A DNA stretch of 64,000 nt from Candidatus Poribacteria bacterium (lineage in GTDB: Bacteria > Poribacteria > WGA-4E > WGA-3G). Both the position numbers and the translations under genes were made by a program. Location: positions 2,496,001 through 2,560,000 of the forward strand of contig OZ240248.1 in NCBI GenBank assembly GCA_965198235.1. The letters run 5' to 3'. Under the pieces are notes generated by a model, which was not told the origin of the DNA, made no database searches, and saw only the letters and a program-made list of their open reading frames with translations. This document shows positions 53,588 to 64,000 of the stretch, piece after piece (position 1 is the first letter of the stretch; the number at the start of each line of letters is the position of its first letter).

Positions 53588-56500
53588 CTATCTTTGAGAT
53601 AACTCGTTGTGATATTCTTCCCCAAGGTGTCTGTGAAATATCCCGTGCTGTTGCGTCGCAATATAAAGTCTGTCATTGCTGATAACGAGAGAGAGAACTT
53701 TATCAGGCACACTCGGAGAGATTTGCTCCCAGCGTCCACCCGTATCTAAGCGATAGACACCCATCTCGCCAGCACCATAAACCGTCATGGTGTCCACAGC
53801 AAACCTGTCCATGACGATACGCTCACCCATTCTATCGGTTAGCACGCGCCAGGATTCTCCGTTCTGTGAAGTCAAAACACCTTTGTCGGTGGCGACATAA
53901 ACCATTGAACCCGCAAAGACGATCTCGTTGAAACCAGAAAAGCGGAGTGGAAGACTCGATGTAATATCTCTCCAGCTGTTTCCACTATCAAATGATTGGA
54001 ACAGTCTACCTTCCCGCTTTCCCACGTAGACGGTTTCCGCTGAAACTGCTAACTTGAATCCTTTTCTCGAATCCTCACTCGACTGTTTACCGAGATCTAT
54101 AAGTCCTATGTTTGTCCATTCCGGATCGCCAGGTTTCCATTTGAAAAGCCTTCGTTGATGCTCTATGTAAAAAGTTTCACCACTAACTGCAAACCCACCG
54201 ACTTTTGCAAAGGACGCAATATAGGACAATGCCTTTCTTAACTTAGGATCTTTTTCCATATCATTAGGCAAGTAGATTTCTTCTGCCTCTGCTATAACTG
54301 TTACCAGTTCGTTGGACAGCATTTCTCCTTTGAAAGCGGGTACTTCTTGAATAGGAGCGAGTACATCACCCTCTACAGATAGACGAAAAACACGCAGATT
54401 GTATTTTTCAGGAATAATCCCATAAAGACCTCCATCTGCACTCACTATCTTTGAATTATAAGAGAAATTGATGTGAGAACGCCCCTGTTCGATTGGTTCA
54501 AATGTCTGTTCATTGGTATCAATGCGAACACTTTTCCATGATTCACCACCGTCGGTTGATTGGACAATATCACTACCCGTATGGTACATAGAGCTTATTG
54601 TTGAAAGTTACCAAACCCTGCATCCTCGTTCCCACGATACCATTCGTAAATGGATGCCATGAGGCACCAGCATCGATCGTGCGATGAATTCCAAACTCCC
54701 CGGCTCTGTAGAAAGTATTTTCATCAACCGCTACAACTGGAAAGATATTCTGTTTCACTGAATCTGTGTCTAATCCTAAGTTCGTCCATATCTGTCCCCC
54801 ATCATTTGAACGGAAACTGAGGACGGCATCTAAGACCAAAAGCCTCTTACCAGAAACCAAGATTTTGACACTACGCGGTGCCCGCATGACAGAAGATTCA
54901 TTTTTAGGTGTTATCTCAGCCCATGATTCTCCTAAGTCGGTTGAGTGGAAAATCTTCCATGGGGGTGTCTTGTCTTTACTTACTATTTGTATCGCATACT
55001 TTCCACCTGTTTTGGGTGGTCCTAATACAAAAGGATCGGAGCCCATTCCAACATAGAGATTGTTTCCCATTTTTGCTAAGGAGTGGACTGCATTGGATAC
55101 GTCCACCGGCAATTGCTCCCATACATCCGAATTAAGGCGATAGAGACCTTCATTTGTGCCAGCAAACACTGTATTTCCAACTGTAGTTACTGCATAAATG
55201 CGTTTGCCCGACAATCCTTCGTTTAAAGGTGTCCACTGCTTGCCACCATCTATAGAGTGAAAAATACCATTGTCTCGTAAAGCCAAATACATTGAAACAA
55301 GACCTTGCGAACTGTTCTCTTGTGTTTCACCCCTAATAACGAGTCCAACGGCATGTCCTTTCGGACGGGGAGCTAAAGCGTTCCACGTCTCTCCATTATC
55401 AATTGAAGTAAACACTTGATTAGGATAGACGATATAGAGCACGCCTCTATGCTCAGTCATGGGCATTCCGAATCCTCTGATGGGTGTGTTAACATCGATC
55501 GGTGTCCACGCAGCTGCATCTGCTGTCAATCTGTAGATATTGGTTGACGTAGTGGCATAGACTGTGCCGCCAGATGTAGCAAAGATTTCAAATACAGGGC
55601 TTCCTTGTGGTCCACTTGCCTGCGTCCATTGCGAGGTAGAGGATCTGAACGAATTGTTCTGCGTATTCGGTGCCAAGACCTTCTCAGAAGTCCGCAGACC
55701 GACACCAGTATTTTCGCTCAGGGCAACATCCCTGCCAGTCTGCGTTCGCACCGCCGATTTTGAATCAATAGCAAGGGTAATCGGTGTATCAATGATTTCA
55801 ATCGTGGGTTCAGATAGTGCCTCAAAACTATACGGCTTTTGAAAACGGAGGAGGTATTGATTGCTTATACCCAGCATCAAGAGGAATACTAATACTGTCG
55901 CTGTCCCAAAGGCTACCCACGGGAGCAAGGGTTTCCCAACCGGAGGCGGTATTGGCTTCATCTCAGCGACTTGCCGCATAATGTTCTGCGTCAAACCCGT
56001 GGATATATGCACACCGCCGAGAACTTCCTGAACCAAGAGTTCTTCTTCCTGTTCTAAACGCTTTCTCGCACGCTGAAGTCGACTCGTAACGGTGTGCACT
56101 GACACACCTAAAAATTTGCCTATTTCTTTGGACTTCATTCCACCGAGATAGTAGAGCGTTATCACAGTGCGCTCACTCTCTGGCAGTTTTTCCAGGAGAT
56201 TTTTTACGAGGCGATAGCGACGCTCAGTCGCTTCTGCCTCTCGCTGCTCTAACACATAGTGGTTGTAAGAGGAGTGTTCGATTTCTTCCATTGGGGTGGA
56301 TGCCAGCGATTGCATCTTAGATTTGGTCCGTTGAATCCAATTAATGCAGAGCCGATTCGCAATGACATACAACCATCCGGCAAACTGACTTGGCTCCTTT
56401 AGGGTCGAGAGGTTTTTATAGGCGTTTAGGAAGGTGTCTTGCGTAATCTCTTCAGCATAGTGAAAATCGCCAATCTTTCGCCACACGAGCGCGTGGATAC

Positions 56501-56591
56501 CCTTCTGATACTTTTCAACTAAAGTACTGAATGCCGTGTCATCACCAGCCAAAATTTGGTTGATTAATTGAGCATCATTTTCTTGTTTCAT
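53588..56591 (-). pseudogene. ECF sigma factor fused to TM and BNR beta-propeller sensor; frameshift at about 54584
   Basis: Sigma regions 2 and 4 (AEEITQDTF, FAGWLY, LPESER, SRLQRAR), a TM helix and S.D.G.TW repeats. One extra C in GTA-C-CAT splits LYVHTGSDI into ORFs 54573-56591 and 53588-54589. Confidence 0.8.
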
Positions 56592-56802: not shown

Positions 56803-56955
56803 ATAGTTATTATATGCATATTATAATGTTAAAGACACAATTTTAGTCTAAAAACGTGCCTAACGCCAAAAAAAGAAAAAAGCACTTGAAATTATGGAAA
56901 AACTTTCTGAAGTAGAAACAAACTCCAAACGCCAAATGTCTCAATTACATTGTTT

Positions 56956-57621
56956 CTACTCAGGCTCCCATCGGAACTTCGTTTCCCGTTTTCCGCCGAT
57001 ACTTTCAAGTTCTTCACTAATTTTCATTGTCTTTTCAATGAGAAGGTGCTCATTACTGATAGTCTCAACGTTGAGTCTCAGTAAAGGCTCGGTATTGGAT
57101 TCTCGGAGGTTGAACCGCCAACTGTCATACTCCAGGCTATCAGAATCAGATGGGCAACCATCTGTGAGAAACCTGACCGATAAACCGTCAATTGGTGTTT
57201 CAATGCAAGGATGGTTTCCCAAAGAGCGTACCGTCTGTCGGATCATTTCCATTGCGTCTTGGATATGCTCACAAGTTTCAAGCGAGAAGTCAGTTACGAG
57301 AACATCACCATTCAGCACAAAAAACGGAAAGGTGTGGATATGCTTCATAGCGTTGAAGATCGCACCGCCTGTGCCGAGTTTTTTATTTTCTTTGGCGTAG
57401 CGGATGTGCATACCTTCGCGGTAGACCCCAACGTGTTCACAGAGCAGATTATGCAGATGCCCCGAAGCCAAAATAGTCTCTTTGACACCTACCTCTTTTA
57501 GCAAATTCAGTTGCCAGTCTAAGACAGAACGTCCACCAATTTCCAACAGGATTTTTGGAATTTTTTTGCTGAGGTTTCCGAGTCGCGTCGCTAAACCGCC
57601 ACACAAAATAACTGCTTGCAT
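56956..57621 (-). pseudogene. In-frame fusion of nucleotidyltransferase N-half and phosphomannomutase domain IV (likely deletion product)
   Basis: ILCGGLATRL..PK..LGTGGA..NGD, then DGLSV..WRFNLRESNTEPLLRLNVE. Confidence 0.7.
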
Positions 57622-57955
57622 GGTTTCCTTTTATTTTCCTTTACAAGGAGGAGTGGCAGCAAAAAACCGCCACATCCGTTGGTATTGACGAAAATCCCAG
57701 AGTCTATAAGGCATATCCATTGATAGTTCCCTTTTGGAGAGACTCTCTGGAAGGTTTTCAATTAACTCATGAGAAAGTGAATCTGTGCTTCTTTGGGAAA
57801 TATATCAAAACCTGAACCTATGCAGGAATGAATCCTAACTTAGACAGAATCACTTTTGCTTTCCTCAGCATACTGATTTGCATGTGTTTCTGCATCAAAT
57901 GGCGGCTATGCAATTCAGGTTCTAGGAGTTTCCGTCTTTCTTTTCTCGTCTATGT

Positions 57956-58213
57956 TTAGGATGGCACACATACACTATCTGAGTGTATACAAGTCCCCCC
58001 TGAATTCCACTTTGTACACCAAACTACGCAAACTTCTCCTTCGTCGCAAACCACAGTGCAACCAACACTGGCACTAACCGGTGTAGTAAACATTATTTCG
58101 GTTAACAAGAAACTCCCAATTCCTACAGTTAACACCAGCGGTGCCTTGACACCAGTTTTGCCTTCCTCAGATTGCAAAAATGTATGAATCTTACGACGTA
58201 GATTTTTCTTCAT
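57956..58213 (-). CDS. Putative RiPP/secreted Cys-rich peptide precursor 1 (6 Cys)
   Basis: AAAGGAGGT RBS; leader shared with two paralogs; core SVGCTVVCDEGEVCVVWCTKWNSGGTCIHSDSVCVPS. Confidence 0.75.
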   Translation of the reverse strand: MKKNLRRKIHTFLQSEEGKTGVKAPLVLTVGIGSFLLTEIMFTTPVSASVGCTVVCDEGEVCVVWCTKWNSGGTCIHSDSVCVPS

Positions 58214-58381
58214 TCGAGTTCACCTCCTTTCTCTTATCAGTACTTTCATTTCCAGAATGAACAACTTCCATAAGAGAACAGACCTTCTGGAAATGCTTGA
58301 AAACAGATACAATCTCAGCAGTTCTAACATTTTGAATAATATCACTGCTAAAGTGTTTTCAAGGTGATTAAATCTAAAACA

Positions 58382-59383
58382 TTATTTCCTTTTCACTTCT
58401 GCCCATTGTGTGGTTAGCAACTGCGGGCGGGGCGATACAGACAATGCATACGCCGGATCAAACCAACTCCCGAGATGGTGCGCGAAGCCGACATGTGTCA
58501 GTTGTATCGGCTCTCCACCATTGAGTGCGATTTTGAATACTTGTAGGCGAATAGGTCGCACAGCATCAACATCATCTGCCTGAACATAAAGCAGCTCTTC
58601 TCCATTCGGAGACCACGTAGGGTTGACAGCTCGTGGACCCGCTTCATCAATAACTTGTTGGAGACCCGTGCCGTCACGGTTTACAACATAAATTGTCTCT
58701 CTCTCAAAATCCTCACGTCGAAGTTCAACTCGATTCACCCACGAAAATGCGACTTTGTCGCCACCTGGAGACCATTCAGGAGACCGGACCCACATTGGGG
58801 TTTTGGGGAAACGGAGGAATGACTGTTTTTTCGTCTGAATGTTGAGCAAACTGATACGTCTCGGTTTGTCAACGGCTCCACTGATATAGGCGATTTCCGT
58901 GCCATTGGGAGACCAGGTAGGTGTGCCACCAATAGCCACCTGCTCCTCCTTTCCTCCATTTATCGCCCCGATGTACAAGAACCACGCGCCACGCTCAAAC
59001 CGAGAATAAGCAATCTGTTTCCCATCTGGAGACCAAGTTGGAGACCCTCTATCCGCTGATTTTTCAAACACCTGTTGGACGTTTTCACCATCTGGATCCA
59101 TCAGATACAGGTCCCAACCCTCGCCCCGATCTCGGTCGGAAGCAAAAAGAATCTGTTCACCAGTGGGAGAAAAAACAGGTCCAACATCATCTGCCTTGTG
59201 CTTTGTGAGATTCACCTGTTGTGTGCCATCTGGATTCATAATGTAGATATCTCGATTACCGTCTCGGTTTGCCGCAAACACAATTTTGGCAGTCGCCGGT
59301 GCTTTCCCTGACACTAAACAAGTATTCGCGCTTAACAATACAAAATTTAAGAAAAACAGTAGGAAAAAATGTTGACGTTTCAA
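58382..59383 (-). CDS. TolB-like PD40 beta-propeller, secreted, with C-terminal TTQW tail
   Basis: P.WSPDG repeats; DIYIMNPDG; ends VSPRPQLLTTQWAEVKRK. Confidence 0.88.
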   Translation of the reverse strand: MKRQHFFLLFFLNFVLLSANTCLVSGKAPATAKIVFAANRDGNRDIYIMNPDGTQQVNLTKHKADDVGPVFSPTGEQILFASDRDRGEGWDLYLMDPDGENVQQVFEKSADRGSPTWSPDGKQIAYSRFERGAWFLYIGAINGGKEEQVAIGGTPTWSPNGTEIAYISGAVDKPRRISLLNIQTKKQSFLRFPKTPMWVRSPEWSPGGDKVAFSWVNRVELRREDFERETIYVVNRDGTGLQQVIDEAGPRAVNPTWSPNGEELLYVQADDVDAVRPIRLQVFKIALNGGEPIQLTHVGFAHHLGSWFDPAYALSVSPRPQLLTTQWAEVKRK

Positions 59384-59611
59384 GGGAAATCCTCCGAAAG
59401 CGGAAGGGGTTCAATTCCAAACCATATCGTCTGAGTCTATACTCCCCATCGTTCAACTGATGATACAGCCCCTCCTATTAAAAATCGTGGAAACTCCAAT
59501 GATTCTGCCTCCACCTCCAAATCATTTTAAGGTCGTAAAAAAATTGCAGTCTGGAATGCTGGAAATGTTGCTCAATAATATGCCAACACTTCCAGCAAAC
59601 ACTTTAATCAT

Positions 59612-59838
59612 TTAGCCACTTACACAAGTACCTACTGGATCACAGAGATTAGGCGGGTGCTTGCACTGGTTATTATCCATACAAGGTTGTGCCGCCGCCT
59701 CTGGTGCTCCAACAATAACCTGTGCAAGCAGGATACTACCAGTCGCAACGCCGAGGGTCAATGGGGATTTGACTCCCACTTTGCCTTCCTCGGATTGAAC
59801 AAATTCGCGGATTTTACCACGCAAATTTTTTTCTTCAT
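59612..59838 (-). CDS. Putative peptide precursor 2 (4 Cys); ATG out of frame owing to an A7 tract
   Basis: AGAAAGGAG RBS then ATG AAG A7 TTTGCG; the conserved NLRGKIREF lies in the -1 frame; core QPCMDNNQCKHPPNLCDPVGTCVSG. Confidence 0.7.
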
Positions 59839-59845
59839 CTTGTTT

Positions 59846-60031
59846 TTTCTCCTTTCTGCCGGTGCTTCTACTCCAGCAAGATTGGATTCCCAACTCTGAT
59901 TGGGAAATCCATTTCCAAGACGAATACTATCGCTACGGGAGTGAAGCCTTTCCCTTGGAAATGCTTGAAAACAAATATAACTTTAGCAAATCTGAGATCT
60001 TGAATAACATTACTACCAAAGTGCTTTCAAG
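59846..60031 (-). ncRNA. Conserved structured 5' leader of peptide genes (related copies 58247-58363 and 61503-61620)
   Basis: Several hairpins with compensatory changes and G-U pairs that form only on the minus strand. Confidence 0.55.
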
Positions 60032-60049
60032 GCGATTAAATATAAAACG

Positions 60050-61027
60050 CTATTTCTTTTTTACTTTTCCCCATTGTGTGGTTAGCAACTGCGGTTGTGG
60101 TGAAACCGGCAAAGCAAACGCAGGATCGAACCAATCGTCGGGAACATTCCAGATACTAATATCTGTCAATTGCTCAACCTCTCTCCCGTCCAATGTAATT
60201 TTGAAGACGTGTGTCTGTCTTATCTGTTTTAAACGTCCTCTATAAACGAGCGCGTCTCCACGTGGTGACCAAACCGGTGCAGCAGCACCCACACCAGGCT
60301 CACGCACAAGTTCTTGGAGACCCGTTCCATCACGATTCAGCGTATAGATCTCCCCTTCATCTTGAGGTCGCTTTTGATGCCACATAAAGGCGAGCCTGGT
60401 TCCGTCCGGTGACCAAACAGGCTCTCTCGCTGTGCTGATGTCATCGGGTGGGAAAAAATGCTTCTGTTTTCGCGTGCGGACGTTCAGAATATATATGTTC
60501 AGGCGGTCAGGTGCTACCCTGACGACATAGGCGATTTCTGTCCCATCCGGAGACCAATCGGGTGTGCCGCCAATCGCCACGCGTTCCTCGTTTTTCCCAT
60601 CACTTGTGGCGATATAGATGTACCCTACACCAGCATCAAAGCGTTTGTAAGCGATCTGTTTCCCGTCAGGTGCCCAAGTTGGATGTCTTCTATCCGTTGA
60701 TTTTTCAAATACCCGTTGGGTGTTTCTACCATCCGGATCCATCAGATACAGGTCTGAGCTTCCAGGAAACCTATCCCGATTCGAGGCAAAAAGAATTTGC
60801 TCGCCAGTGGGTGAAAATACGCCACTAACATCAGCTGCGCGATGATTGGTTAGATTTGTCGGTTGGCTTCCGTCCGGATTCATTAGATAGACTTCCATAT
60901 TTCCATCACGGTATGTGCTAATGATGATTTTTGCAGTTTCGGGTGCTTTTGCTAAAAGAGGGCAAACACTTGTAACTAACAGTGTGAAGTTAAAAGCGTA
61001 AGAGAGAAGCAATAGCGTTCGTTTCAT
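60050..61027 (-). CDS. TolB-like PD40 beta-propeller, secreted, with C-terminal TTQW tail
   Basis: Paralog of 58382-59383; WSPDG repeats; ends VSPQPQLLTTQWGKVKKK. Confidence 0.88.
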   Translation of the reverse strand: MKRTLLLLSYAFNFTLLVTSVCPLLAKAPETAKIIISTYRDGNMEVYLMNPDGSQPTNLTNHRAADVSGVFSPTGEQILFASNRDRFPGSSDLYLMDPDGRNTQRVFEKSTDRRHPTWAPDGKQIAYKRFDAGVGYIYIATSDGKNEERVAIGGTPDWSPDGTEIAYVVRVAPDRLNIYILNVRTRKQKHFFPPDDISTAREPVWSPDGTRLAFMWHQKRPQDEGEIYTLNRDGTGLQELVREPGVGAAAPVWSPRGDALVYRGRLKQIRQTHVFKITLDGREVEQLTDISIWNVPDDWFDPAFALPVSPQPQLLTTQWGKVKKK

Positions 61028-61261
61028 GAAAAATCCCTCCTTATTTGAGAGCGTAATTCAGATCTGTTAGAAGAAGTATGCCATGGATCAATCCAAAGAG
61101 CTATGGCTTCGTCAGATTTATCTTGACGATTGGCAGTTTACTACACAAGATGCCCGCATCAAACCTAAACGACTCTATTCGTCAACAGATGGTTGACAAA
61201 GCACTAGCGTGTCGTGGCAAAATGCTATCACGCCCTAGGCTTATCTCTCAGCTTCCCTCAA

Positions 61262-61495
61262 TTAGGGAGTTTCGCAACTGCCGTGGTGTTCTAAGCAGTT
61301 AAAAGGAAAAATATGCTTACAATCCTCATCATCGTCGCACGGTGCTCCCGCCTCAACAGGTGTTGTCCCAACGATTGCGTTTGCTAATAGAACACTACCC
61401 GTCGCTACACCAAGCGTCAGCGGTGCTTTGGCTCCCACCTTGCCTTCCTCAGATGCGAGGAACTCACGGATTTTACCGCGAAGATTATTTTTCAT
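61262..61495 (-). CDS. Putative peptide precursor 3 (4 Cys)
   Basis: AGAAAGGAG RBS; conserved leader; core GAPCDDDEDCKHIFPFNCLEHHGSCETP. Confidence 0.75.
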   Translation of the reverse strand: MKNNLRGKIREFLASEEGKVGAKAPLTLGVATGSVLLANAIVGTTPVEAGAPCDDDEDCKHIFPFNCLEHHGSCETP

Positions 61496-61696
61496 CTTAG
61501 ATTTTCTCCTTTCTGCCGGTGCTTCTACTCCGGCGAGATTGATTTCCCAACTGAAGTTGAGAAACCCATTTCCAGGGCGAATACTATCGCTACGGGAGTG
61601 AAGCCCTCCCCCTGGACATGCTTTCTAATGGCTTTTCAAAAGGCTTATCATCTTTGTTGGTTGTTTGAACGGTGTTATCCAATCCGTGCCTTGTAA

Positions 61697-62230
61697 TTAT
61701 TGGCACGGTGTTCCACTTGCACGCAGGAGTTGATTGGCTTGGAATTGATGTCCATCAACGAAAATCGTCGGAGAGGCACGAACGCCGAGTTCCGCAGCGC
61801 GCTTGATGTTTTCTCGGAAAAGCTGTTCTGCTTCCGAACTGTCAAATAATTCCTGAATCTTCGCCACATCAATGCCGAGTTTCTCTGCACACTTTTCCCA
61901 ACTCTTGTCCAATTTCTTGCCCCGACACAAAATGTAGTCGAGGTACTTCTCAGGATACTCTTGTGCTATCAGGAGTTGTCGGATGTTTTCCGCTACTTCG
62001 GGATAACCGTGAAGGCTCGTAAACGGTGTTATGTCTTGTGCGGAAGGTTCCGCCTTCTCCTGCGCAATAAATTGAAGTTTGAAGTCGATTTTATCACCAA
62101 ATTCCTTCACGATCGGAATAATCTTTTCTTCCGCTTGAACGCCATAAGGACAATAACTCATGACAAAGAGTTCCAGTGTCGGTTTTCCCATACGTGCCGT
62201 GCGAGAGGTCAAGAGTTCCTCCAAGTTCAT
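61697..62230 (-). CDS. GILT/DsbA-like thioredoxin-fold protein
   Basis: LELFVMSYCPYG, SLHG..E, two further Cys and cis-Pro ASPTIFVDG. Confidence 0.75.
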   Translation of the reverse strand: MNLEELLTSRTARMGKPTLELFVMSYCPYGVQAEEKIIPIVKEFGDKIDFKLQFIAQEKAEPSAQDITPFTSLHGYPEVAENIRQLLIAQEYPEKYLDYILCRGKKLDKSWEKCAEKLGIDVAKIQELFDSSEAEQLFRENIKRAAELGVRASPTIFVDGHQFQANQLLRASGTPCQ

Positions 62231-62233
62231 CGG

Positions 62234-63020
62234 CTATCGGCTATGGTCGACATCCTTGGTATGGAGTGTCACCACCTCTGCGAACCCCGGGGAATGTTTA
62301 GCGTCGTGGCATTGCAAACAGAGACCTGTATCCGCACCGCTACGGATGTTGCTCTTTTTCGGATTGCCCACGTGCTGTTTGCCAGGACCGTGACAGGTCT
62401 CACACTGCACGCCTTTGAGCGTTGAATCCTGATCGCCTATCTGAAAACCCGTTGAATAACCGAGTCCAGTGGCATGGCAGGAGACACACCCTGCATCGAA
62501 ATAGCGTTCTTTTTTTAGAAGGGTTTCATAGGCGAAAGTGTGACGCGTTGCTGACCATTGGAGGTATTCTTGCTGATGACACCGCTGACACGCCGTCGCC
62601 GAGACATACCCGTTTTGTGGGTCTCGTTCCAAATGTTGGTTCGCAAACAGAGGTGTGCGGGTTCTTCGGTCTTGGGAGATCTCTTGGTAAAAGTCAGTTA
62701 GCAATTGACGCACCGATTCGGATTCCTCTACATCGCCTGTTAATGACAATGGGGTCGCGTAATGGCGTGTGAGTTCTCCATCTGAATCTATCCAAAGTGC
62801 TAAAAATCCTAACGTTTTGCCTTCAGGTTTGGAGCCAACGTAAAGCGTTCCACTCTCAGACTTCGTTATTTCAAGTTCGTCGGGCTGGATCACGACATCA
62901 ATGTGCTTCGACACTTCGACATTGCCCAAAGCCACAACAACATCTGCTTGTGATACTGCTTGCTCCTGGACGACATCAGCGACAAAAGCAATTGTCCGCT
63001 GTCCAACTTGTTTGATAAGG
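62234..63020 (-). pseudogene. Tetraheme cytochrome c (c554-like) with partial 5'-nucleotidase-like domain; 5' end missing
   Basis: Four CxxCH motifs (CQRCH, CVSCH, CETCH, CLQCH); no signal peptide; frame begins inside the upstream gene. Confidence 0.75.
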
Positions 63021-63450
63021 TGAGCGTCTCTAATTCTGCATCCTTTGCCAAGTGTATCAGAAGTTGGTAGCGATTTAGATTTGTTACGTAGTCCAGCGAT
63101 GTTTTCTCTTTCGTAAAGTGAAACGGCACCAATAACTTCGGTTTCCGATTCTCCTGTTTCCAACTGTCGGTGGTTTGCTCCACCGCCCCATCTATTGGAC
63201 TTAAAAGTGAGCCTTGCTGTCCAAGCCGTTCCAAGCGTTCAATCCCGTCAAAGATAGAGGTGATCTTATATTTTTCCTTGAGCCCTTCAACGATCTGGTA
63301 TTCCGTCTGAGTCCCATAGCGATCCAGAATCTCCCATTCCACATCATTAACCTGAATGATGTCGTTCGTCTCAAGGTCTGCGACATATTTGCGACCCCCC
63401 TGTTCAAATTTATGGTGACGGTTCAAGCGGTAGCGCGTGTGAAATGCCAT
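63020..63450 (-). pseudogene. RRE (RiPP recognition element) domain protein, truncated; probably an RRE-glycosyltransferase
   Basis: HKFEQGGRKYVADLETNDIIQVNDVEWEIL...KY....I...I..LE.L...G.LLSP closely parallels the N-terminal RRE of SCIFF/CteB-type maturases (recalled, not searched). Confidence 0.65.
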
Positions 63451-63475
63451 AATTAACTTTGCTCCCTTCTGGTAT

Positions 63476-64000
63476 TTAAGCGGTTGCATGGATTAAGCCG
63501 CGAACCCTTTTGAGAATCGCCTTTGCTTCTGCTTCATCCTCGATTAAATCAGCAAGAAGTGCCTCAACTTCTCTCGCAGTATGGTTTTTCAGGAGAGTCA
63601 TCACGAGTCCTTCTTCAACACGCTGAGAATAGAGTACATCTCCCATCAGAGAGCGTTCATAGTGTTTGTTCATACCCAATAGAATGGACTTATATTTTAG
63701 GTGCCGTTGTTCTGAATCTGATGCTTCAATTTCGGTGGCAAAAACATTCAAAAGCCCATTTGGACTAACGAGCTGTCTTTTTCGATGGAGTTCCTCAAAG
63801 AATTGGATAATGCGGCGTGCGGTTTTGTCCCATGTAAACGACAATGCGCGTTCTCTCGCTTTTTGAGAAAGTGCCTCCCGCATCTCATCATCGTTCAACA
63901 GCAGATTAATCTTCTCTGAGAAGTCTATGGGTGATGGATAACTCACGAGTGTTCCTATATCGCTATTAAAATTATCAGCGTCCGCAACCAAGCCTGCATC
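63476..64000 (-). CDS. Glycosyltransferase family 4, C-terminal part with extra helical tail (runs off window end)
   Basis: DAGLV...KINLLLNDDEMREALSQKARERALSFTWDKTARRI. Confidence 0.8.
   Translation of the reverse strand, partial: DAGLVADADNFNSDIGTLVSYPSPIDFSEKINLLLNDDEMREALSQKARERALSFTWDKTARRIIQFFEELHRKRQLVSPNGLLNVFATEIEASDSEQRHLKYKSILLGMNKHYERSLMGDVLYSQRVEEGLVMTLLKNHTAREVEALLADLIEDEAEAKAILKRVRGLIHATA

Follow-up and report, generated by a model that had tools for sequence, protein, structure and literature searches.

A degraded locus of cysteine-rich peptides, RRE-bearing glycosyltransferases and PD40 propellers in a Candidatus Poribacteria genome

Peptide genes and their neighbours in the window

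The window considered here is a 64,000-nucleotide stretch of a Candidatus Poribacteria genome (G000:C1:2496001-2560000), the last part of which carries a locus of short genes for Cys-rich peptides with a common leader; every feature of this locus lies on the minus strand. An earlier note on the same DNA had taken it for a candidate system of RiPPs, peptides made on the ribosome and then modified after translation, with three peptide genes, a protein bearing a RiPP recognition element (RRE), a glycosyltransferase of family 4 (GT4), a tetrahaem cytochrome and a thioredoxin-like protein. Two genes of PD40 β-propeller proteins, absent from that note, are interleaved with the peptide genes p1-p3.

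The peptide p1 (61262-61495, 77 aa), identified as an open reading frame (ORF), by the leader hidden Markov model (HMM) and by its homologues, consists of the leader, an AxA-like site and a four-Cys core terminating in G-S-C. The peptide p2 (59612-59838; 59612-59893 in the ORF list), recognized by leader alignment, has four Cys and is frameshifted, and p3 (57956-58213, 85 aa, six Cys; ORF and alignment) is the last peptide of the locus. When the three are aligned, 27 columns are invariant and nearly all of them fall within residues 1-48; this alignment and the leader HMM agree with the earlier claim of three short ORFs sharing a leader of ~48 aa and having divergent cores of 6, 4 and 4 Cys. 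The strong ribosome-binding sites described before are present as AGAAAGGAG 6-9 nt upstream of each peptide ATG.

When the 98,636 stop-to-stop ORFs of the genome were searched with the leader HMM, exactly four matched (E 2e-32 to 5e-30), with the next match at E 1.1; the resemblance of the peptides is therefore no chance effect. The fourth peptide, p4, is located at G000:C1:960783-961004 with PD40 genes on either side. Run as the earlier note had proposed, the leader search thus recovered p1-p4 in their own genome and many Poribacteria homologues elsewhere. At least 250 homologous clusters of 42-135 aa were obtained from 5.8 billion proteins searched, and the family is summarized as one of 70-100 aa; the named ones are all "hypothetical protein" of Candidatus Poribacteria, with no functional name in any source, and a protein-atlas search returned nothing beyond two Poribacteria "hypothetical" clusters (0.89 and 0.84). 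A profile search run exhaustively over 1.84 billion representatives matched 92 clusters, nearly all of them short, and the leader was found on a single longer protein only; consequently it is no general export signal of the lineage. Among 176 genomes of the phylum, the set on which all co-occurrence was tallied and in which related genomes are not independent, the peptide is present in 65, and its tandem arrays have a period of ~1.1-1.7 kb. With up to 19 genes per genome the peptide system is among the most expanded small-gene families of Poribacteria, the dominant and uncultured symbionts of sponges.

The mean pairwise identity, estimated from 1500 sampled pairs of 167 unique peptides, is 78% in the leader versus 30% in the core, in agreement with the conserved leader and variable core described before. 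Directly ahead of a 19-residue hydrophobic stretch of the leader the residues S15, E16, G18, K23 and P25 are invariant, and the AxA-like site noticed with this stretch is borne out by 141/167 peptides, in which A-x-A lies 0-5 residues ahead of the first Cys (9 residues ahead in one more). Four Cys are found in 131/167 unique peptides, usually spaced as C-x5-C-x5-7-C-x4-13-C, and the last Cys belongs to G-[S/T]-C, again in 131/167. The leader profile thereby provides genome mining with hundreds of natural variants of the Cys framework. Four distant relatives (P0328, P0329, P0331, P0332) carry [KR]-K-[IL]-x-D-F-[IL]-x-x-E-D-G-[RQ]-[IV]-G followed by a hydrophobic stretch and a Cys-rich tail, so that by its motif the leader type may reach past the close family. 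Another entry, P0054, is a 101-aa chimera in which the N-terminus of a methyltransferase is joined to a peptide from its residue ~20, seemingly a further sign of recombination among the parts of the locus.

The start codon of p2 (59838-59836) is out of frame with its leader, as the run of A at 59832-59826 has seven letters and eight are required. DNA contigs X1 have no indel at this run, same as the window, although X1 may be the source sample and give no independent support; an RNA contig of a relative has 2 letters fewer at 59832. In one RNA-library contig (X6, record 13) the sequence of 59549-59910 recurs with one extra letter as the sole difference; if this letter falls in the A7 run, the p2 ATG would be in frame, via transcript slippage or as a strain variant. 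RNA-library contigs identical to the window, all from one study and available as contigs only, cover p3 (57931-58308, 0 differences), pieces of the PD40 genes and the p2 region. The ranges 56900-57847 and 61640-62824 are without cover, which in the contigs of a single study is no sign of silence.

The partner of p1 is a PD40 β-propeller of 325 aa (60050-61027, PD40 E 1.7e-22) with a signal-like N-terminus and a C-terminal tail conserved in the consensus of a 72-member family, and the partner of p2 is one of 333 aa (58382-59383, PD40 E 4.8e-27). They resemble TolB of the Tol-Pal system in the repeats of a six-bladed PD40 propeller and in periplasmic targeting, and differ from it in their length of ~330 aa, the lack of the TolB N-terminal domain, the many copies per genome and a C-terminal tail of their own. 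Against TIGR02800 the partner of p1 scores 155.6 bits and the other 150.7 bits, with matches beginning at profile positions 170-195, while the cut-off is 343.15, and on these scores a TolB equivalog was rejected. The best conserved part of the 72 PD40 paralogues is the tail D-W-F-D-P-A-[YF]-A-L-P-V-S-P-Q-P-Q-L-L-T-T-x-W-G-K-[VL]-K (for example window 60050-60140), which may be a docking or sorting signal.

Upstream of the peptides the 199-aa ORF at 62890-63489 carries the RRE. Its first 115 residues were modelled with AlphaFold2 together with 27 relatives, giving a predicted local distance difference test score of at least 94 at residues 20-95 and a fold of strands followed by three helices, in keeping with the three-strand, three-helix plan of PqqD-like RREs. 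In Foldseek comparison of this model with the PDB, CteB (5wgg/5why) came top at E 5e-5, with a root-mean-square deviation of 1.0-1.8 Å over 72-74 residues and 30% identity, and the next matches were lasso B1 proteins with bound leaders, McbB, LynD/TruD, PbtF and PqqD; the domain profile searched against PDB sequences found CteB residues 4-84 at E 5.1e-14. Both results confirm the N-terminal RRE of CteB type that had been proposed, while single-sequence models match it weakly (PqqD E 0.05; N-terminus of NCBIfam not_ScfB E 8.7e-6). A predicted complex of the RRE (residues 14-105) with the leader (residues 1-50) scored 0.02 against a mark of 0.32, which weighs neither way on binding. Tblastn, Foldseek and the profile assign 63013..63450 to residues 1-146 of a larger protein, designated GT-B, comprising the RRE and the start of a glycosyltransferase fold. 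The 3' part of another glycosyltransferase of GT4 type, GT-A, occupies 63476..64000 (Glycos_transf_1 E 5.2e-28).

Between the RRE and p1 lie a 309-aa ORF with four CXXCH motifs (62234-63163, Cytochrome_C554 E 7.5e-15) and a 177-aa DsbA/GILT-like ORF (61697-62230, DSBA E 2.3e-11, GILT E 2.1e-9). Blastp and tblastn attribute the whole of 61700..63025 to residues 176-616 of one exported tri-domain protein, which in a relative has 616 aa and is composed of a UshA-like metallophosphatase part, four CXXCH (tetrahaem cytochrome c554-like) and a DsbA-like thioredoxin fold. The earlier note was correct in the domain types, tetrahaem cytochrome and GILT/DsbA thioredoxin, and not in taking them for two genes, since what is seen are the last 441 residues of this single protein.

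Locus architecture in relatives and erosion of the present copy

The linkage map of relatives was built from 19 loci of 14 genomes, picked for holding arrays, and the loci of the genera g6 and g4 were mapped as well; in all of them the mapping covered the gene families probed for. The order mapped is GT-A, GT-B, (peptide, PD40)n, a 298-aa S-adenosylmethionine (SAM) methyltransferase, a 378-aa paralogue of A24 peptidases and the 616-aa tri-domain protein, followed by more cassettes, a nucleotidyltransferase, a phosphomannomutase and a sigma factor fusion. Among 78 peptides of relatives, PD40 comes next after 57 and the nucleotidyltransferase/phosphomannomutase sugar genes after 10, and 17 have a full-length GT-B directly upstream; the PD40 propeller is the most regular partner of the peptide.

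A full-length GT-B relative of 581 aa is modelled as an RRE joined to a glycosyltransferase of GT-B fold, its nearest solved structures being MshA (E 1.3e-13), glycogen synthase and BshA, and the gene upstream of it in relatives is a second, paralogous RRE-GT4 of ~571 aa, that is GT-A. The RRE match opens an open frame in 59 other genomes of the phylum, mostly 535-620 aa long, and the domain is found in 60/176 genomes, 54 of which also have the peptide (54/65 peptide-positive). The linkage of GT4 and RRE to the peptides, claimed before, therefore stands in the form of RRE-GT4 fusions directly upstream in relatives; in the window both genes are remnants. Likewise the redox module belongs to the system as claimed, for the cytochrome/thioredoxin protein is part of the conserved locus of relatives.

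The A24 paralogue (Arc_PepC 27.7 bits, cut-off 23.4; Peptidase_A24 E 3.2e-5) belongs with the intramembrane aspartyl peptidases of prepilin/preflagellin type, has an archaeal-type C-terminal domain and comes on top of one canonical PilD per genome. The earlier note mentions neither this locus-specific paralogue nor the methyltransferase and the sugar-nucleotide genes. It is present in 70/176 genomes, namely in 58/65 peptide-positive versus 12/111 peptide-negative ones, and the source genome is one of the seven peptide-positive genomes without it. No radical SAM gene, no accessory Sec gene and no C39-ABC exporter were seen in the mapped loci, the last without a search by family made for it.

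Set against these relatives, the window holds an eroded copy of the locus and not an intact biosynthetic cluster, as judged by comparing the reading frames. GT-A is a 447-aa ORF reaching to window-equivalent 64819 (L002 3476-4819), which keeps residues 123-571 at 91% identity to the 571-aa relative (tblastn), thus the GT4 catalytic domain, and lacks the N-terminal ~122 residues with the RRE-like domain. GT-B keeps residues 1-146 only (88% identity to the 581-aa relative, tblastn), and the last ~40 residues of the 199-aa ORF are out-of-frame read-through. An intact tailoring enzyme beside a precursor was looked for in the window and rejected, GT-B being cut after residue 146 and GT-A lacking its RRE. 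A deletion has joined pieces of two different genes, and for this reason the 199-aa and 309-aa ORFs share 274 nt; the breakpoint between GT-B and the tri-domain protein lies at 63013-63025, and residues 1-175 of the latter are lost. The X1 DNA contig covers 62804-63127 with 0 differences and so spans this junction. An RNA-library contig of a relative (depth 170) has 1174 extra letters exactly at the breakpoint, the length required for the remaining GT-B, and then a p2-like peptide.

The tri-domain remnant is 86% identical to the 616-aa relative over 442 residues (blastp) and is divided into the "cytochrome" and "GILT" ORFs by an in-frame TAG at 62236-62234 standing opposite a Glu; the hydrophobic N-terminus of relatives (export sequence) is absent from this copy. 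In relatives the nucleotidyltransferase (243 aa) and the phosphomannomutase (485 aa) are separate genes, and here a 221-aa remnant at 56956..57621 fuses residues 1-126 of the first to the last ~105 residues of the second (tblastn; Pfam NTP_transferase residues 3-124, PGM_PMM_IV 165-192). The sigma fusion at 53588..56591, an extracytoplasmic function (ECF) sigma factor joined to a membrane segment and an extracytoplasmic BNR/Ycf48-like propeller, is split into ORFs of 672 and 333 aa with a 17-nt overlap, while its paralogue in a second locus (L003) is one 984-aa ORF (phmmer, and Pfam matches of the paralogue). Of the A24 paralogue just 27 codons are left in the genome, in that second locus, with no other copy at E <= 1e-5 (tblastn).

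The second locus, also eroded (L003 7621-11346; G000:C1 ~958.6-962.3 kb), comprises PD40, p4, PD40, an intact 299-aa methyltransferase, the 27-codon A24 stump and a GT-A RRE fragment (residues 4-61), with the intact 984-aa sigma fusion opposite.

The ~150 nt conserved upstream of p1, p2 and p4 repeat the final 40-50 codons of GT-B, and therefore the cassettes were duplicated along with that flank. The copy before p1 (61495..61635, last ~47 codons; tblastn residues 535-581 at 66% identity, and upstream DNA alignment) bears the ribosome-binding site of p1, and the one before p2 lies at 59838..59987 (last ~50 codons; residues 532-581, 68% identity by tblastn); the upstream region of p3 is unlike that of the other peptides.

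By these alignments the genome has lost the catalytic part of GT-B, the RRE of GT-A, the A24 paralogue, the sugar-nucleotide genes and the signal for export of the redox protein, through deletions, frameshifts and a nonsense codon; three or four peptide genes are left together with their PD40 partners. A tidy-looking locus can be a wreck, and the intact relatives are the ones worth study.

Interpretation and competing explanations

According to these data the window is read as holding one eroded copy of a gene system that is so far undescribed and lineage-wide in Poribacteria, and that unites RRE-GT4 enzymes, peptide/PD40 cassettes, an A24 paralogue and a redox protein; the probability of this reading is put at about 0.5. 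Its peptides are probably exported, disulfide-rich and glycosylated, each with a cognate propeller.

All steps of the mechanism are inferred from folds, gene linkage and the conservation pattern. The RRE domains would bind the charged N-terminus of the peptide in the cytoplasm, where GT-A would add a hexose from locally made nucleotide sugar, the candidate acceptor being the conserved Ser/Thr of G-[S/T]-C or a Cys, and GT-B would act as a non-catalytic partner holding the substrate. The 19-residue hydrophobic segment would then insert into the membrane, and removal of the leader could be the work of the A24 paralogue close to the invariant Gly18, of signal peptidase I at AxA, or of the two together. 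Two or three disulfides would be formed by the thioredoxin-fold domain in its coupling to the tetrahaem domain, and the mature hypervariable knob would bind the neighbouring PD40 propeller as a receptor, chaperone or immunity partner. A more far-reaching proposal is tentative and clearly less probable than the reading above, namely that the products form a new ribosomal class, RRE-recruited, GT4-glycosylated, A24-released and haem-coupled-folded knots with cognate propellers, which in recombining arrays would create diversity in a repertoire of ligand/receptor or toxin/immunity type within the sponge holobiont.

The division of labour between the glycosyltransferases is suggested by their motifs. 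The first Glu of E-x7-E is catalytically important in GT4 enzymes; GT-A reaches 98.2 bits for Glycos_transf_1, and E-E-x-F-G-x3-L-E is kept in 11/11 A-type rows of the alignment A4, while the B type has a two-residue deletion at this motif and lacks the first Glu in 21/21 rows. A precedent is the GtfA/GtfB pair, in which a catalytic GT4 works with a GT-B-fold paralogue without catalytic residues and serine-rich adhesins are glycosylated before export; the present case differs in its tiny Cys-rich peptides and in the RRE domains as proposed recruiters.

Several points weigh against the reading of an active, glycosylating and disulfide-forming system. GT-B scores 25.4 bits for Glycos_transf_1, below the gathering cut-off of 26.4. 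The thioredoxin-fold domain exceeds the Pfam cut-offs of both DSBA (44.3 bits) and GILT (38.1 bits), and its motif, with a single Cys in place of CxxC, reads C-P-Y-G in the window and C-P-F-G in relatives. The peptides match no Pfam or NCBIfam model, the 19 mapped loci were picked for their arrays and come partly from related, non-independent genomes, and the modification, cleavage site, export and binding of the peptides are predictions throughout. The linkage of leader homologues to modifying enzymes, which the earlier note wished to see scored, was found for RRE-GT4 and the redox protein and fails for RRE-GT in the sister genus g6. In 4/4 g6 loci the sigma fusion, peptide, PD40, A24 paralogue and tri-domain protein are kept without glycosyltransferase or methyltransferase, and 10/11 peptide-positive g6 genomes are without an RRE match; therefore glycosylation is not essential, and RRE recognition does not explain the conservation of the leader. 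Glycosylation looks accessory to the system. A simple RiPP reading is weakened both by the g6 loci lacking RRE-GT and by the single Cys of the thioredoxin motif.

Among known systems the RRE-dependent RiPPs are the closest in general plan, with a short precursor, a conserved leader, a variable Cys-rich core and a PqqD-like RRE at the N-terminus of a tailoring enzyme, whereas the leader considered here has in addition a membrane-spanning stretch and AxA. In CteB, the thioether-forming radical-SAM maturase of SCIFF, the RRE is part of a radical SAM/SPASM enzyme, and here it is fused to a GT-B-fold GT4. A SCIFF/ranthipeptide assignment was rejected, as the not_ScfB match covers only positions 3-76 of a 450-position model and the full-length relatives are glycosyltransferases.

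Glycocins such as sublancin and glycocin F have two disulfides, a sugar on Ser, Thr or Cys and genes of thiol-disulfide oxidoreductases in the cluster; their glycosyltransferases are GT2 enzymes (GT-A fold) without RRE, and their double-glycine leader is cut by a C39-ABC exporter. The peptide system is similar to them in a ribosomal Cys-rich peptide and a linked thiol-redox gene, with two disulfides and a sugar predicted, and differs in GT4, the hydrophobic AxA leader, the linked A24 paralogue and one PD40 gene per peptide. Membership was rejected because of GT4/GT-B-fold enzymes instead of SunS-like GT2 and AxA instead of double glycine. A CxxC-type DsbA/GILT thiol oxidoreductase was likewise rejected on the one Cys of its motif. 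Judged by its motifs and folds, the system resembles RRE-dependent RiPPs and glycocins and lacks the enzyme features by which glycocins, SCIFF, Flp pilins, TolB and CxxC DsbA are defined.

In the literature, RREs fused to PF00535 (GT2) glycosyltransferases were reported in 2025 as newly noticed on bioinformatic grounds, and the parts of that report consulted do not mention PF00534/GT4 (PMC12710340). In the literature search neither RRE-GT4 nor A24 peptidases with RiPP leaders nor the peptide family turned up, while the supplementary tables of RRE fusions (PMC12710340, PMC7470986) may list RRE-GT4. The combination of an RRE on GT4, an A24 paralogue beside RiPP-like precursors, a tetrahaem/thioredoxin-fold fusion and one PD40 gene per peptide was not described together in the literature searched. 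TolB-like propellers are enriched in sponge microbiomes, for which the consulted part of that study gives no explanation (PMC5735121); the peptide/PD40 cassettes offer one.

The best surviving alternative, considered rather unlikely, is that the peptides are mini-pilin-like or membrane-anchored surface proteins, whose class III signal is cut after Gly18 by the A24 paralogue so that a glycosylated Cys-rich knob is displayed, with the hydrophobic helix staying as an anchor or filament core and the cassette arrays giving surface variation. It draws on the A24 paralogue, present in 58/65 peptide genomes and kept in the minimal g6 locus, on the invariant S15, E16, G18, K23 and P25 ahead of the hydrophobic stretch, on the conserved 5' flank of each downstream cassette, and on 5/5 genomes checked with one T2SSE-type ATPase and one canonical PilD, so that a type IV filament machine exists; F-x-x-S-E-E-G of the leader is presumably similar to the Flp cleavage motif. 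Against it, Flp_Fap (PF04964) was found in 0/21 genomes, 8 of them peptide-bearing, with the Caulobacter control found, and the peptides have no match among pilin families. An invariant Lys stands at +5 after Gly18, where pilins typically have Glu; genes of an assembly ATPase, a platform or a secretin were not seen among the families probed in the mapped loci, and AxA in 141/167 peptides would free the knob from the helix. Taken as a class, systems with class III signals and A24 peptidases share with the peptide locus a putatively dedicated A24 paralogue, linked in relatives and deleted in this genome, a charged N-terminus, an invariant Gly, a hydrophobic helix and a length of ~75 aa, and differ from it by a pilin model match, another residue than Lys at +5, assembly genes in the locus and the lack of an extra AxA. 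Membership in Flp/type IV pilins was rejected for want of a Pfam family match and is kept as a resemblance.

Still more improbable are modules of polymorphic antagonism, in which the peptide would be a bacteriocin-like toxin and PD40 its cognate immunity or export partner, the downstream cassettes being "orphans" that recombine into the expressed position via the GT-B 3' end and the leader. The tandem arrays with as many as 19 peptides in a genome, PD40 as the next gene after 57/78 peptides, the GT-B tail copies (last 40-50 codons) before p1, p2 and p4, and the frequent recombination evident from the P0054 chimera and the deletions here would fit such modules; but in the 72-member alignment the PD40 proteins show fair conservation and no region that stands out as hypervariable, their export signals would place the encounter with the peptide outside the cytoplasm, and neither a toxin domain nor a dedicated exporter was seen.

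A functional cluster in the window itself, in which a discrete RRE protein, GT4, tetrahaem cytochrome and GILT/DsbA act on three peptides, as the earlier note had it, is very improbable in spite of the intact and confidently folded RRE domain (residues ~14-105), the catalytic motif kept in GT-A, the discrete RRE proteins known elsewhere (lasso B1 proteins, PqqD) and the intact ORFs of p1, p3 and both PD40 genes, since the RRE ORF terminates in ~40 out-of-frame residues, the cytochrome carries a TAG and lacks residues 1-175 including the export signal needed by c-type cytochromes, A24 is reduced to 27 codons with no other copy in the genome, the sugar genes are a fused fragment, p2 has a frameshift and the sigma fusion is in two pieces.

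Observations at related loci and past the window end

A third, divergent pair of RRE-GT genes (L047 9346-12698; L052 1804-5210; L062 3688-7094), 21-25% identical to the main pair, occurs in the same super-loci, and in L047 a 662-aa cytochrome-type variant adjoins it.

In the g6 loci (L072-L075) the conserved TTTGCACC ... CTGTGTCAT.AATTAT stands 150-190 nt upstream of the peptides, in the stretch that separates the peptide gene from the divergent sigma-fusion gene; it is a candidate promoter or operator.

Beyond the window end (L002 5853-8617) there are an ORF of a GIY-YIG/integrase-core fragment, a 358-aa PD40 gene and a 341-aa DDE transposase; this mobile-element debris is probably connected with the loss of the 5' end of GT-A.

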